Both the position numbers and the translations under genes were made by a program. DNA of 64,000 bases from an uncultured Planctomycetia bacterium. Its GTDB lineage: Bacteria; Omnitrophota; Gorgyraeia; 1-14-0-20-64-10. Under the pieces are notes generated by a model, which had not been told where the DNA came from, ran no database searches, and was given only the letters and a program-made list of their open reading frames with translations. The DNA is taken from assembly GCA_964373715.1 (NCBI GenBank), contig CAYJVR010000001.1:269888-333887 (forward strand), given 5' to 3'. Below, one piece after another: positions 43,881 through 49,206 of the stretch; the stretch's first letter is position 1, and each line of letters begins with the position of its first letter.

Positions 43881-45365
43881 TCACTTGAGATATTCCAGCA
43901 TGGTTCGGCCGATATCTTTTAGGTTTTGGTCTCCGAGAATTTCAGAGCTTAAATGGGAATAGACGCGGGGTTCGATGAAGAGGCCGGGCTTCGTGCGGGT
44001 GAAGACCGCGGAGATATAGGCCAGAACCGCTTCATCAGGAACGGAGCGGTTCCGGGCCTCTCTGAGCAACGGCGCCAGGTCGTTCGGGTCATCCACCCGG
44101 ACGACCCCCTCCTCGAATTCTTCGTAAAAGGAATGCCCGAACAGGAACACCGGCCGGCCGTGCATCAGCGCCTCCCAGCCGGCAGTTCCGGTGATCGTCA
44201 GCACCGCCTCAGCTTTCGGCACCACCTGGTAGCTGTCGAGAGATTGGGACAGAAACCGGACTTTAGGCAGCGCCAGCAGTTCTTCGTAGAAGCGCCAGGG
44301 CCGGATGCCGAGCAGCATGGAGGGGTGCTCTTTGACGTACAGCCACCGGTCGACAGGCAGCGCCGCGCTGATTGTTTTGACCAGGTCCATCTGCCGGATC
44401 CATCCTTTGCCCTGTGTGGCGAGGGAGATCTCCGGCTCGTACTGGAGAGGAAAGAAGAAGAACTTCTCCCCTTCCGGGAGGCGGCCGCACTGTCTTCTGG
44501 AAAGCCGCCAGCGGTAAAAACCGGTGCGTCGGGAAACGAAAGCCCGTTTGACCGCCGCCGGCAGAGGCAGGTCGAATTTTCCGGAATCGGTTGTGAGAGA
44601 TTCCTTAAAAAGATTTACGGCCGACACCGGGTTCGGCAGAAGGGATCTCCTTTTATACTTGGCCCGGACGGCCAGATGGTCCAAAGGTTTCAGGTGCCGG
44701 TGACGGTATTCATCGAGAAGTTCCTGGGACGAGGTTCTTTCCTCGGCGGTGAATCCGCCGGCTCTCATCCGGCTGTAGGTCTCTCCGATATGGAGGACTT
44801 CAAACGGGTTATTCAGGATGAATGAGTGTTTGCCGAACCGGGCCGGGCTGAAGCTCAACACCGGGATGCCGTTGGCCTTCATCACGGTCATCGCGACCCA
44901 GGGGGAGAGGCCGTCGGCCGCGCCGGTGATGTAAAGGGCCGGACGGATCTCCCGCACAAGCCTCTCAAAGTAGTCGATGTGCGAGAAAAGAAACCGCCAC
45001 TTCACCTCCTCGCGCCGGCCTTCGAGGGACCTCTCCATGATGATGTAACTGCGCAGGTGGGGGTTTCCGTACAGCTTTTCCCATCGGTCCACCGCGGTGT
45101 CGGTCCAAGGAGATTGTGCCGGGTAAGGCTCCATCTCCTCGTACTGGCAGCGGACCGAGACCTTCTCCACCGGGAGGATTGGCTGAAGCGCCTGCCTGTC
45201 CCGTCTGTCATCGAGCAGGAAATGAAAAAGGAACCGGTCCGCCAGCTCCGGCCGGCTGTCGAGCAGGTTTTTCAGCGCATGGGTGAAGATAGCGCTGGTG
45301 GTGTGGTACCGCCCGTAGATCAGCACCGGTTTAACGCCCGGCATGGAGGAGTTCCTTCCGTGCAT
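43881..45365 (-). CDS. capsule-polysaccharide-biosynthesis family protein (Capsule_synth; KpsS/KpsC/LpsZ-like)
   Basis: Blocks FFFPLQYEPEISL and VLTITGTAGWEALMHGRPVFLFG resemble the KpsS/KpsC family; paralog of the next gene. Confidence 0.5.
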   Translation of the reverse strand: MHGRNSSMPGVKPVLIYGRYHTTSAIFTHALKNLLDSRPELADRFLFHFLLDDRRDRQALQPILPVEKVSVRCQYEEMEPYPAQSPWTDTAVDRWEKLYGNPHLRSYIIMERSLEGRREEVKWRFLFSHIDYFERLVREIRPALYITGAADGLSPWVAMTVMKANGIPVLSFSPARFGKHSFILNNPFEVLHIGETYSRMRAGGFTAEERTSSQELLDEYRHRHLKPLDHLAVRAKYKRRSLLPNPVSAVNLFKESLTTDSGKFDLPLPAAVKRAFVSRRTGFYRWRLSRRQCGRLPEGEKFFFFPLQYEPEISLATQGKGWIRQMDLVKTISAALPVDRWLYVKEHPSMLLGIRPWRFYEELLALPKVRFLSQSLDSYQVVPKAEAVLTITGTAGWEALMHGRPVFLFGHSFYEEFEEGVVRVDDPNDLAPLLREARNRSVPDEAVLAYISAVFTRTKPGLFIEPRVYSHLSSEILGDQNLKDIGRTMLEYLK

Positions 45366-46770
45366 TCCTAAACTGCCACTCGGCGCTGATTCCGGCCGCG
45401 ATGGCGCTCACGTTGGAGGGGTCGTGTATACCCGGGATCGTATGCTCATAGGCGCCGGGATAGCTGCGCCTGTAGAGGGAGACGACGAACCGGTCCAGGC
45501 TCGCCGGGTCGAAACTCATCCCCTCTTTTATCTTCTGCAGGCCGGCGGCGATCTCCTCGTATCCGGCGGCCCGCAGGACCCCTTCGGTGAATTGGTCGTA
45601 GAATGCCCTTCCCAGCAGGAGAACCGGTTTTCCGTAAAAGAGGGCTTCGAACCCGGTTGTTCCGGAGATAGTCACTACCCCTCGGCAGCGGGAGATGATG
45701 TCGTAGCCGTCCGTCTTATGGTCCAAGAGCCGGATGTTCCCCAAACGGGCGAGTTCACGGTAGAAACCCAGAGGGCGGCTGCCCGGCGACATGTTGGGGT
45801 GTTCCTTGACGCACAGCAAGGTCCGGGCCGGCATAGCGGAGGATATTCGTCTCAGGAGCTGGAGTTGATCCCGGACGTTGGAGCCGAGGATGTCGATGCT
45901 GAATTCCGGCTCAAAGTGGAGCGGGTAGTAAAAGAACCGCCCGTCCGGCGGCAAGGGTTCCGACAGCCTGCGCATTTCGAGCCGCTGAAACGGCAAACGG
46001 CCCCTCACCCGGAAGGAGTTGCGGATATAACTGCCAAGAGGGGCGTCGAAGTACCAGTCCTGATACTTATGCCGCCGCCACTGGGAGGAAAGCATTTTCA
46101 GCGGCGAGGGGAGGGTCTTGATCCTCGGGCCCAGTCCGTAATAGGAGGGGCGGACCCTTTTCCGCGTGTACGCCTCGCGCATCGAACGGGCCAGCGCCAG
46201 TTCCTCCTGGGAAGGAGGATCGGCCGAAAGGGAGTCGGCTGTTTCCCGGAGTTCCGGGATCTGTTCCAGCTCGTTATCCACCACATGGAAGCGGCCGGTG
46301 ATCCGGGATGGGATCACCGCCAGCAGCATCGAGCCGTTCCGTTTGAAAACCTCCTGCGCCGCGAAGAAGGGCAAAGAATCGGCGCCTCCGGTCAGAAGGA
46401 GATCGGGGCGGGTTTCCTGCCATAGCTTATCGAAATATTCCAGATAGGCCTGCAGGTAGGCCGCTTTCCGTGATTCGCTTAAGCCGTCGATGATCCTCTG
46501 GGCGGTGATATAGCGGCGCAGCGTCGGCGCCCCGTATTTTTTTTCGAGGCCGGCCAGTTTCTTCCAATCGGGCGTCCGGGGTCTCCGCCACGGGTTGAGT
46601 GTTTCATGCTGATAGACCAGCCGGATCCTGGGGTCGGTTTTTTGCTGAAGCGCCTGCCGGTAATGAAACAGATCCCCGATCACAAAGGTGAAGCACTCCG
46701 CCCCTTTCCAGGGGCCGGACAAAAGATGTTCGATCAGGCCGAGAAACAACGGCGTCGTGTTGCCCGCCAT
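45331..46770 (-). CDS. capsule-polysaccharide-biosynthesis family protein (Capsule_synth; KpsS/KpsC-like), paralog
   Basis: FFYYPLHFEPEFSI and VVTISGTTGFEALFYGKPVLLLG. Start set at MAGNTTPLFLG (46770): the tool ORF has about 390 aa of Arg/Pro-rich extension that overlaps the flippase gene out of frame. Confidence 0.5.
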   Translation of the reverse strand: MAGNTTPLFLGLIEHLLSGPWKGAECFTFVIGDLFHYRQALQQKTDPRIRLVYQHETLNPWRRPRTPDWKKLAGLEKKYGAPTLRRYITAQRIIDGLSESRKAAYLQAYLEYFDKLWQETRPDLLLTGGADSLPFFAAQEVFKRNGSMLLAVIPSRITGRFHVVDNELEQIPELRETADSLSADPPSQEELALARSMREAYTRKRVRPSYYGLGPRIKTLPSPLKMLSSQWRRHKYQDWYFDAPLGSYIRNSFRVRGRLPFQRLEMRRLSEPLPPDGRFFYYPLHFEPEFSIDILGSNVRDQLQLLRRISSAMPARTLLCVKEHPNMSPGSRPLGFYRELARLGNIRLLDHKTDGYDIISRCRGVVTISGTTGFEALFYGKPVLLLGRAFYDQFTEGVLRAAGYEEIAAGLQKIKEGMSFDPASLDRFVVSLYRRSYPGAYEHTIPGIHDPSNVSAIAAGISAEWQFRNARKELLHAGR

Positions 46771-48365: not shown

Positions 48366-49206
48366 AGTTGACCCGTGCGCCGACCCGGTTCAGATGAGAT
48401 GACCAGGGTTCGCGGGACGGCAGCAGCTTGAAGGCGGCGACATCCCGGCGGCCTGAGAGAGGGGGGTTGGCACGGTGAATCAAGTTTGAATCCCAGAAAA
48501 GCACCGTTCCCGCCGGTCCTTCGATCCGTGTCCCGTCATTCTCCAGCTCTTTTCGGAACGGTTCAGCACGGAACCGGTCGAAGAAACCCTTTCTCAGCAG
48601 CCGGCGCGTGCTCTCTTTCGAGTGCAGACCGAGCGCTCCGCTGGTTCTGTCGCACTCGGTGAGGTAGACCATGATTTTGTAAATCCCCGGGGGGTAGTTG
48701 TCCGTGTGCCACAGCCCGGAGAGGTTCGGAGGCGCCGACGTGGGAACGATCCGGTAAAGCTCGCTGGTGTAAATCTTGAAGTGCGACCCAAAACAAGCTT
48801 CGGCCACCGCGGCCACCTTCGGGTTGATCAGCTGCGCGATCTCCGGGACTCGCGCCATGCTTTCGTTAAACTGGAGGAACCAGTCCTCTTCAGGCAGCAC
48901 CCGGAGGTGGCCGGCGTTTGCTAGCTCCTCGCACTTCGAACGGATCGTTTCCAGCAGGCCCGGTTCATAACCGGGGTTGAAAATGACATACCCGTCCCGG
49001 CGGAAGTGTGCCGCGAAATCAGCTGCCTCAGGAGAAAGCGTTTTACCCGCGCGGCGGAAGGCCCGGCGGCATTCCGCGTGGTGCCGCAGGTACCGGAAGT
49101 TCTTGCCCCATGGGGTCCGGTTTCCGAAAATCGCTTGGTCCGGACGCAGGCCTTCCAGGCCGGGATACTGGTTCCGCAGGTTCCGGTAAATTGTTTTTAC
49201 GGTCAT
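48319..49206 (-). CDS. Fe(II)/2-oxoglutarate-dependent dioxygenase, PhyH-like
   Basis: H-x-D…H triad in LWHTDNYP and SNLIHRANPP, with an Arg in SGRRD. Confidence 0.6.
   Translation of the reverse strand: MTVKTIYRNLRNQYPGLEGLRPDQAIFGNRTPWGKNFRYLRHHAECRRAFRRAGKTLSPEAADFAAHFRRDGYVIFNPGYEPGLLETIRSKCEELANAGHLRVLPEEDWFLQFNESMARVPEIAQLINPKVAAVAEACFGSHFKIYTSELYRIVPTSAPPNLSGLWHTDNYPPGIYKIMVYLTECDRTSGALGLHSKESTRRLLRKGFFDRFRAEPFRKELENDGTRIEGPAGTVLFWDSNLIHRANPPLSGRRDVAAFKLLPSREPWSSHLNRVGARVNYESRPEQTPADPSAD

Follow-up and report, generated by a model that had tools for sequence, protein, structure and literature searches.

Tandem PF05159-superfamily paralogs beside nonulosonic acid genes in an Omnitrophota surface-glycan locus: predicted glycosyltransferases with glutamate at the nucleophile position of the Kdo enzymes

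We analyzed a stretch of 64,000 nucleotides (the window, numbered from its first letter) of the Omnitrophota assembly GCA_964373715.1, corresponding to positions 269,888 to 333,887 of contig CAYJVR010000001.1, with attention to two tandem paralogous genes at 43881–46794 of the minus strand, whose products we call ParA and ParB. In the reading that we prefer, and to which we assign a probability of roughly 0.6, these proteins would be two transferases for a pseudaminic-acid-type sugar activated with cytidine monophosphate (CMP), each with its own acceptor in a lipid-linked unit that would then be flipped by the adjacent Wzx-type protein. A preliminary description of the segment had compared the pair to KpsS and KpsC, which enzymes build the linker of 3-deoxy-D-manno-octulosonate (Kdo) in capsule systems, and had proposed that a β-Kdo oligomer is formed on a lipid anchor; that part of the description is not supported by the analysis presented below. 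The module is a nonulosonic acid surface-glycan system of a known general kind, and what sets it apart are the very large protein clade with Glu for Asp—and usually His for Gln—in the catalytic motif, the conservation of the tandem pair, and the presence of a dedicated and highly divergent Wzx.

Every gene in the window is carried on the minus strand, and those beyond about 12 kb form, up to the end of the window, one very large surface-glycan locus of the lipopolysaccharide (LPS) type, in which GT9 heptosyltransferases (glycosyltransferases, GT) were recognized by Pfam along with a Wzy_C protein; the preliminary description had likewise spoken of an LPS-like locus. The segment in question comprises four tightly packed genes, encoding a PhyH-like dioxygenase (48319–49206; 295 aa), a polytopic membrane protein (46791–48272; 493 aa, in an open reading frame that extends to 48365), ParB (45331–46794), and ParA (43881–45344). 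Between the PhyH-like stop and the start of the membrane-protein gene lie 46 nt, whereas the following junctions overlap: the ParB start lies over the membrane-protein stop (4 nt), and the ParA start over the ParB end (14 nt). The ParA reading frame spans 43881–45365, with an upstream ATG at 45365, while the gene-caller start at 45344 gives a 487-aa product 100% identical to P0001; ParB is the C-terminal part of a long reading frame (45331–47946) whose real start at 46794 likewise gives 487 aa, identical to P0040. An alignment of ParA with ParB spans 448 residues at 32% identity (E 9e-65), which excludes a chance match and makes them true paralogs, as the preliminary description had maintained for two proteins of about 480 aa. 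The sequence blocks that it had quoted are present in both, as FFFFPLQYEPEISL...LTITGTAGWEALMHGRPV in ParA and FFYYPLHFEPEFSI...VTISGTTGFEALFYGKPV in ParB, though in ParB a His occupies the place where a Gln had been written.

Both paralogs belong to the PF05159 (Capsule_synth) superfamily, with 47 bits for ParA and 50 bits for ParB against a Pfam gathering cutoff of 20, which scores bear out the earlier Capsule_synth-like call; the match covers only the profile positions 141–267 of 310, that is, the C-terminal nucleotide-binding half. When ParA was used as a single query against the PDB sequences, KpsC was the best match (E 5e-8). We then used a family profile built from 62 sequences against the PDB sequences, the KpsC and KpsS of Escherichia coli CFT073, and a set of cluster representatives. 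Among all the PDB sequences that profile matched only KpsC (GT107, E 6e-15) and WbbB (GT99, E 8e-5); it also matched both modules of the E. coli CFT073 KpsC (E 1.5e-31), and the E. coli KpsS weakly (E 5e-11, 27.8 bits), over the C-terminal residues 263–346 (about 80) only. WbbB, KpsC, and KrkA (GT140) are retaining Kdo transferases that share an HP motif binding CMP (PMC12887879), and it is with the K(V/P)HP form of this motif in KpsC that the KEHP of ParA and ParB aligns; among the 62 homologs, little or no variation is seen at its K, E, and H/P. The AlphaFold2 model of ParA (mean predicted confidence, pLDDT, 94) has the two-Rossmann layout of a GT-B enzyme with a helical insert.

The likeness to the Kdo enzymes KpsC, KpsS, WbbB, and KrkA thus extends to a homologous CMP-binding domain with its HP motif and GxEAL helix, and to a catalytic loop that in both groups follows the domain's first strand; the tandem arrangement also recalls KpsC, in which, however, the two modules are fused, while ParA and ParB are separate proteins. 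When we compared the two paralogs by region, the donor (C-terminal) domain showed 43% identity, against 28% for the N-terminal domain and 19% for the helical insert. Such a conserved donor domain, joined to N-terminal and helical parts that have diverged, would be expected of enzymes that use one kind of donor on two different acceptors. The two proteins would most likely be cytoplasmic GT-B enzymes using a CMP-activated 2-ulosonic acid, as do KpsC, KpsS, WbbB, and the KpsS1 considered below; CMP is predicted to be bound by the HP motif together with the C-terminal Rossmann domain.

The catalytic loop differs. In WbbB, KpsC, and KrkA the Asp of a QxxxD motif is the absolutely conserved nucleophile, which residue forms a covalent Kdo–enzyme intermediate, and the Gln binds the Kdo carboxylate (PMC12887879); the E. 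coli KpsS, too, carries the motif, as QVYND. The alignments revealed no QxxxD in ParA or ParB, and herein lies the key difference from the Kdo TRANSFERASES: the corresponding position reads QYEPE in ParA (within PLQYEPE, that is, QxxxE, followed by KEHP and TGTAGWEAL) and HFEPE in ParB (within PLHFEPE, HxxxE, followed by KEHP and SGTTGFEAL). The Glu was aligned consistently on the Asp, with the QVESD of 6mgd as well as with the PGQVEDD of the E. coli KpsC-C. Among 218 aligned family members the Gln and Asp positions were occupied by H/E in 139, by Q/E in 50, and by Q/D in 5, at least 4 of these last carrying the KpsC-type PGQVEDD; Glu is found at the nucleophile position in about 96% of the clade, and His takes the place of the Gln in ParB, as it does in most clade members. 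The [H/Q]xxxE loop would correspond to the site at which, in the Kdo enzymes, the Gln holds the carboxylate of the sugar and the Asp forms the covalent intermediate, and the Glu may, as far as can be judged from the alignments, act as the nucleophile in a similar chemistry, whether the predicted reaction be retaining or inverting.

The genes that surround the pair point to the donor. In the same minus-strand run are located a PseI equivalog (58625–59734; 480 bits against an NCBIfam cutoff of 340, which order of score and cutoff we keep in what follows; also recognized by Pfam NeuB), a PseF-like CMP-sugar synthetase (62705–63415; PseF 182.7/205.7), a GNAT/PseH-like protein (61073–61687; PseH 57/93), and, downstream of ParA, a LegC/PseC-like aminotransferase (40521–41678; PseC 265/423.5, LegC family 334/420). 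A class-III aminotransferase (59731–61089) and a Gfo/Idh/MocA oxidoreductase (61698–62708) are further genes of nonulosonic acid supply, and overlapping public contigs reveal PseG-like (119/153.6), PseB-like (309/407.8), RmlD-like, and NodU-like carbamoyltransferase genes just past the window end. The PseF-like gene is the only cytidylyltransferase in the window, and its 182.7 bits to PseF compare with 38–61 bits to the KdsB models. We consider that the donor would most likely be a nonulosonic acid of the pseudaminic-acid (Pse) type, produced by the PseB-, PseC-, PseH-, and PseG-like enzymes together with the PseI and the PseF-like synthetase.

That sugar would be further modified. Two WbuX proteins (358.6 and 352.3 bits, cutoff 203), WbuX-1 (57448–58647) and WbuX-2 (53304–54626), enclose a HisH–WbuZ fusion (56006–57475; WbuZ 276.7 bits, below the cutoff of 299.7) and separate HisH-like (55335–56006) and HisF-like (54623–55396) proteins, Pfam His_biosynth and GATase domains being recognized in this group; these two WbuX/HisH/HisF sets represent the system that turns acetamido into acetamidino groups, and are predicted to do so here. 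This machinery is doubled in the window and in a related Omnitrophota locus (L004), while a Nitrospira locus (L009) has one set within its 10-kb flanks; the doubling suggests two amidino groups, carried either by a single sugar or by two different ones. A precedent is the O-antigen (LPS) locus of Legionella pneumophila, where NeuA/NeuB-type synthesis is combined with HisH/HisF-like amidotransferases to give a 5-acetamidino group, which group can be N-methylated, and where the product, a legionaminic acid homopolymer, is exported by an ABC (ATP-binding cassette) transporter (Wzm/Wzt). The likeness, which we draw from descriptions, consists in the nonulosonic acid and HisH/HisF genes, whereas the present locus has a synthase of the PseI type and export of the Wzx type. 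Methylation, hydroxylation, or carbamoylation may come next.

To assess how far this gene arrangement is conserved, we considered the best 80 related loci with 10-kb flanks, 51 of which had those flanks in full. A NeuB homolog was located within 10 kb in 38 of the 80 and in 32 of the 51, and a cytidylyltransferase in 31 of the 80, all of which scored higher with the PseF-like query than with the E. coli KdsB. Orthologs of ParA and ParB repeatedly occur on common contigs. In L004, from the Omnitrophota metagenome-assembled genome (MAG) GCA_023818695.1, the order is HisHF, WbuX, methyltransferase, GT4, Wzx-like, ParB-like, and ParA-like; in L009, from a Nitrospira MAG, it is Gfo/Idh/MocA, CTP_transf_3, GNAT, Aminotran_3, NeuB, WbuX-like, and HisHF, followed by PhyH-like, Wzx-like, ParB-like, and ParA-like; and in L010 the pair lies beside CTP_transf_3, Gfo/Idh/MocA, and Aminotran_3 genes as well as genes annotated as Wzx and Wzy_C. 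A local variation was observed at L004:8895–9974, where the tight overlap is missing and the ParB-like and ParA-like genes are instead separated by an inserted radical SAM/SPASM gene (SAM, S-adenosylmethionine) that runs on the opposite strand.

The closest functional analogy is provided by the PF05159 proteins Gtr59, KpsS1, and KpsS2 of Acinetobacter, which are found beside nonulosonic acid modules and were assigned as transferases for such sugars, with relatives likewise placed in E. coli O108 and O165, Photobacterium, and Bacteroides (PMC4487303). KpsS1 of A. baumannii is, as cited in PMC12887879, a retaining Pse5Ac7Ac transferase of family GT118, and it is described in the literature as the only dedicated pseudaminyltransferase characterized in vitro. 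With this group ParA and ParB would share not only the superfamily but also the adjacent nonulosonic acid module, the Wzx-type locus, and a CMP-nonulosonic acid donor, used or predicted; the adjacency of genes typical of GT118 is found here in the PseI equivalog and the PseF-, PseH-, PseC-, PseB-, and PseG-like genes of the same run. Differences are nevertheless evident: the reported identity of KpsS1 with the E. coli KpsS is 30%, whereas the profile of ParA and ParB covers only about 80 C-terminal residues of KpsS; and ParA and ParB are longer (487 aa), with a full N-terminal Rossmann domain and a helical insert. Full-length membership in GT118 seems unlikely, the separation from KpsS1 being made by way of the E. 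coli KpsS match only. A second point of comparison is the BFO_1060 family (Tanf_01245/TFUB4_00887) of Tannerella forsythia, composed of genetically validated transferases for Pse or legionaminic acid (Leg) derivatives that have an HP motif and are encoded beside a CMP-nonulosonic acid pathway (PMC5420450). The NCBIfam model of that family matched ParB weakly over the C-terminal domain (26 bits, E 3.4e-6, with a cutoff of 200 bits) and gave no match to ParA; unlike our proteins, the family has been described as TagB-like, with the D/E-D/E-G motifs typical of sialyltransferases.

The export step is suggested by the membrane protein, which the preliminary description had called a flippase of the multidrug/oligosaccharidyl-lipid/polysaccharide (MOP) superfamily. 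Neither Pfam nor the PDB sequences gave a match to it, even at E<=10, and NCBIfam gave none. It is 35.5% identical (E 9e-64), however, to the product of L010:14941–16473, which protein passes the Pfam models Polysacc_synt_3 (40.5 bits) and Polysacc_synt (38.7 bits); it has about 12 hydrophobic segments; and the top 50 Foldseek matches in the PDB to its low-confidence AlphaFold2 model (pLDDT 56.6) were all MurJ, MATE, or WzxE. Because of that L010 homolog and of the restriction of the Foldseek matches to the MOP superfamily, we agree with the earlier call and accept the protein as a predicted, divergent flippase of the Wzx/polysaccharide-transporter (PST) type. It has five close homologs only, none of them annotated; it is 42% identical to the product of the gene at the same position in the Omnitrophota MAG; and a Wzx-like gene is conserved beside the pair in L004, L009, and L012.

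Taken in sequence, the proposed pathway would proceed as follows. Within the cytoplasm ParA and ParB would probably add the nonulosonic acid at two acceptor positions of one lipid-linked oligosaccharide, which intermediate would be made with the participation of the conserved GT4 (51222–52406); the predicted order of action leads from these additions to the adjacent Wzx-type flippase, which would move the unit across the inner membrane; and a Wzy_C-family enzyme would finally transfer that unit to its carrier, either lipid A-core or protein. The window contains plausible end and start points for such a glycan, in the form of a Wzy_C-domain protein of the O-antigen ligase or polymerase type (23690–24949) and a WecA/MraY-type initiating phosphoglycosyltransferase with a CoA_binding_3 region (24946–26757), both of which roles we infer from their Pfam and NCBIfam domains.

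An alternative in which the pair would act as a split, KpsC-like dual polymerase, with ParA and ParB alternating to produce a nonulosonic acid homopolymer or oligomer with two alternating linkages, is a serious competitor, rather unlikely in our view but with several points in its favor. The two GT107 modules of KpsC do alternate β-2,4 and β-2,7 Kdo linkages (PMC12887879), which two-module precedent would be matched here by a strictly tandem, overlapping pair conserved across Omnitrophota and Nitrospirota, with similar donor domains and divergent acceptor regions. The Wzx and the conserved GT4, however, suggest a short lipid-linked repeat unit; a long cytoplasmic polymer would normally need an ABC transporter, and there is none in the window; and most members of the clade are encoded by a single gene per locus.

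We regard as improbable the assignment of one donor to each paralog, by which two different nonulosonic acids would arise from two NeuB synthases and two WbuX/HisH/HisF sets. There are indeed two WbuX, two HisH/HisF sets, and two NeuB homologs, namely, the PseI equivalog and an atypical NeuB cut by the window end (63408–63995; Pfam NeuB). Only one CMP-sugar synthetase was seen, though; in the Nitrospira locus the 10-kb flanks of the conserved pair contain one NeuB, one WbuX-like gene, and one HisHF fusion; and the donor domains are the most similar parts of ParA and ParB. The second NeuB measures 347 aa in full (in the region L006:2532–10008), scores 200 and 177 bits with the NeuB and PseI equivalog models, below the cutoff of each, and adjoins the NodU-like carbamoyltransferase and the RmlD-like reductase; that set may constitute a second unusual ulosonic acid pathway, perhaps for a carbamoylated sugar.

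The Kdo proposal itself—in which ParA and ParB would be the KpsS and KpsC of the locus, as retaining β-Kdo transferases whose oligomer is later hydroxylated or methylated—we consider quite improbable. It could draw on the PF05159 matches, on KpsC being the closest solved relative, on the conserved HP motif, and on an LPS-like window with GT9 heptosyltransferases and Wzy_C; and an LPS-bearing organism presumably makes CMP-Kdo, which precursor is needed for the LPS core, so that kdsA, kdsB, or waaA elsewhere in its genome would not tell the two readings apart. Against the proposal stand, in the first place, the Glu that replaces the QxxxD Asp in both paralogs and the His that replaces the Gln in ParB. 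In the second place, the search for CMP-Kdo supply and capsule exporters gave little: tblastn with the E. coli queries KpsE, KpsD, and KpsM found none in the window and 0 of 80 in the related loci, where the control queries KpsF and KpsT were matched in 1 and 3 of the 80, respectively; the window lacks kpsF, kpsE, kpsD, kpsM, and kpsT, its only match to the Kps proteins of E. coli CFT073 being one of 50 bits between KdsB and the PseF-like gene; and a KdsB-type gene was found neither in the window nor in those loci. Third, the predicted export is by a Wzx flippase and not by an ABC transporter. Finally, the gene run encodes a PseI equivalog with the rest of a Pse-like pathway, and the clade, whose members abound in archaea, in the candidate-phyla-radiation bacteria, and among Gram-positives, co-localizes with NeuB and not with Kdo or kps genes. 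Because of the Glu at the nucleophile position, the missing kps genes, the Pse-like pathway, and this taxonomic spread, the Kdo reading is not supported; nor, on motif content, is the filing of ParA and ParB as KpsS/KpsC-type Kdo transferases.

That the two proteins should be no glycosyltransferases at all but should serve nonulosonic acid synthesis as epimerases or hydrolases of sugar nucleotides, with a GT-B fold and akin to NeuC or PseG, is hardly credible, for although the best Foldseek PDB matches of the ParA model were UDP-GlcNAc 2-epimerases, including NeuC, and a distant homolog (P0025) has a precomputed Epimerase_2 match, those structural matches, at a TM score of about 0.25 and 9–15% identity, amount to generic GT-B similarity, while the profiles matched no PDB sequences other than KpsC and WbbB and no Pfam family other than PF05159, and a separate PseG-like gene exists.

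Several observations nevertheless weigh against our preferred assignment of ParA and ParB as CMP-pseudaminic-acid-type transferases. With Glu in place of the Asp nucleophile, the chemistry of the Kdo enzymes cannot simply be transferred to these proteins. PseI alone scores above its equivalog cutoff, the other genes of the Pse pathway being best or near-best matches below theirs, and the exact nonulosonic acid is therefore uncertain. The second, atypical NeuB beside a carbamoyltransferase leaves room for a second donor; in about 40% of the complete related loci a NeuB gene was not found within 10 kb; and our search of the literature found neither a description of the clade nor a biochemically tested member.

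As to the extent of that clade, its signature is PL[H/Q]x[E/Q]PE ... KEHP ... TGTxGxEA, and a HMMER scan with the family profile over 1.84 billion cluster representatives (50% identity) retrieved 16,935 proteins with a threshold of E<=1e-3 and 6,522 with one of E<=1e-30; most of the best 150 matches were full-length (about 470–510 aa). A pattern scan over one genome per GTDB species gave at least 559 relatives, which include among the bacteria Pseudobutyrivibrio, Hungatella, Selenomonas, Bifidobacteriaceae, Saccharibacteria, and other Patescibacteria, and among the archaea Nitrosopumilales, Woesearchaeota, and Thermoplasmata; Firmicutes are represented, and the clade is common in Gram-positive bacteria, in the candidate-phyla-radiation bacteria, and in archaea. 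To our knowledge, most of those groups make neither LPS nor Kdo. We would put forward, tentatively and with more doubt than conviction, that the clade constitutes a distinct and very large glycosyltransferase family, devoted to nonulosonic acid transfer by means of a catalytic Glu, of which the pair with its dedicated Wzx in Omnitrophota and Nitrospirota would form a module that adds two residues, or an alternating di-nonulosonic acid motif, with PhyH hydroxylation in some lineages. The main uncertainty on its novelty is whether the clade includes proteins of the Gtr59 or the KpsS1 type.

The bacterial transferases for pseudaminic and legionaminic acids are poorly known. If the assignment is correct, the clade would explain a large share of the "missing" transferases in the gene clusters of Gram-positive bacteria, the candidate phyla radiation, archaea, and uncultured phyla, and would supply new enzymes for making nonulosonic acid glycosides. 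The change from Asp to Glu, moreover, poses the question of whether the covalent-intermediate chemistry of the Kdo enzymes extends to nine-carbon sugars. For annotation, the lesson is that the label "KpsS–KpsC" given by PF05159 does not amount to "Kdo linker" unless the QxxxD motif and the gene neighborhood have been checked.

Regarding the dioxygenase and METHYLTRANSFERASES, the earlier claim of an Fe(II)/2-oxoglutarate dioxygenase was confirmed for the PhyH-like protein by a Pfam PhyH score of 31.8 bits (cutoff 22) and by the HxD...H iron-binding residues (LWHTD, IHRA). Four homologs, which represent three phyla, keep LWHTD and IHRA, and an RD is conserved among homologs as well. The likeness to the Kdo hydroxylase KdoO that had also been invoked is, by contrast, an analogy only, with no detectable relation, since PhyH was the sole Pfam family matched at E<=10 and membership in the KdoO family was not found; the PDB sequence search likewise gave no significant match. 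Homologs were found beside Wzx-like and ParA-like genes in loci of Vicinamibacterales, of Acidiferrales, and of Nitrospira (here a 316-aa gene product without Pfam annotation, found by tblastn, with 43% identity and E 1e-76), and all these loci carry WbuX and HisHF. By tblastn of the related loci, the gene is absent from L004/L011, L010, and L012, which absence from Omnitrophota relatives and from L010 places it outside the conserved core. The protein is best regarded as probably a lineage-variable tailoring hydroxylase, a role that is predicted as accessory. A later putative hydroxylation or methylation of the sugar, as the preliminary description had envisaged, is plausible, the methylation in view of the many SAM methyltransferases in the locus; and the N-methylation of an acetamidino group has its precedent in Legionella.

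Among those methyltransferases, one (52396–53304) comes directly after WbuX-2, as it does in L004, and is followed by the conserved GT4, again in the order of L004. Upstream of the PhyH-like gene, a SAM methyltransferase of 269 aa (within 49203–51225) and a 406-aa protein without known family (49203–50423; a Methyltransf_23 match at E 0.077 only) are variable accessory genes, both absent from L004; the gene for the 406-aa protein lies between the methyltransferase and PhyH-like genes and, apart from near-identical contigs, matched no more than a short fragment, found in a single Omnitrophota locus (L012).

Downstream of ParA are located a further SAM methyltransferase (43008–43778) and a PMT_2/ArnT-like GT-C transferase (41728–43065), both recognized through Pfam and NCBIfam. 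Here the composition changes: the interval 42001–44000 has a G+C of 0.507, against about 0.58–0.61 on both sides, and the third-codon-position G+C of these two genes is 0.54–0.59 versus 0.7–0.85 in their neighbors, so that the low-G+C stretch directly downstream of ParA may have been acquired through a recent insertion. The locus contains at least five PMT_2/ArnT-like GT-C genes (41728–43065, 37061–38440, 29043–31172, 20067–21632, and L006:1–1206), accompanied by small GT2 genes such as 39686–40528, which combination suggests an extensive periplasmic decoration from polyprenyl-phosphate sugars.

Two fusions were also observed. The product of 24946–26757 is a 603-aa protein with an N-terminal Glycos_transf_4 domain of the WecA/MraY type, whose C-terminal CoA_binding_3 region resembles the N-terminal part of phosphoglycosyltransferases of the WbaP/WcaJ type, an architecture that looks unusual for an initiating transferase; and 34114–36066 encodes a GT4 fused to a DUF218 domain (650 aa), which fusion is conserved downstream of ParB–ParA in L004 and L009. 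Outside the glycan locus, at 5197–7363, two tandem GalT/HIT-like genes (of the galactose-1-phosphate uridylyltransferase type) are flanked by the glycolysis genes for GAPDH, PGK, and TIM and by fmt, def, and priA.

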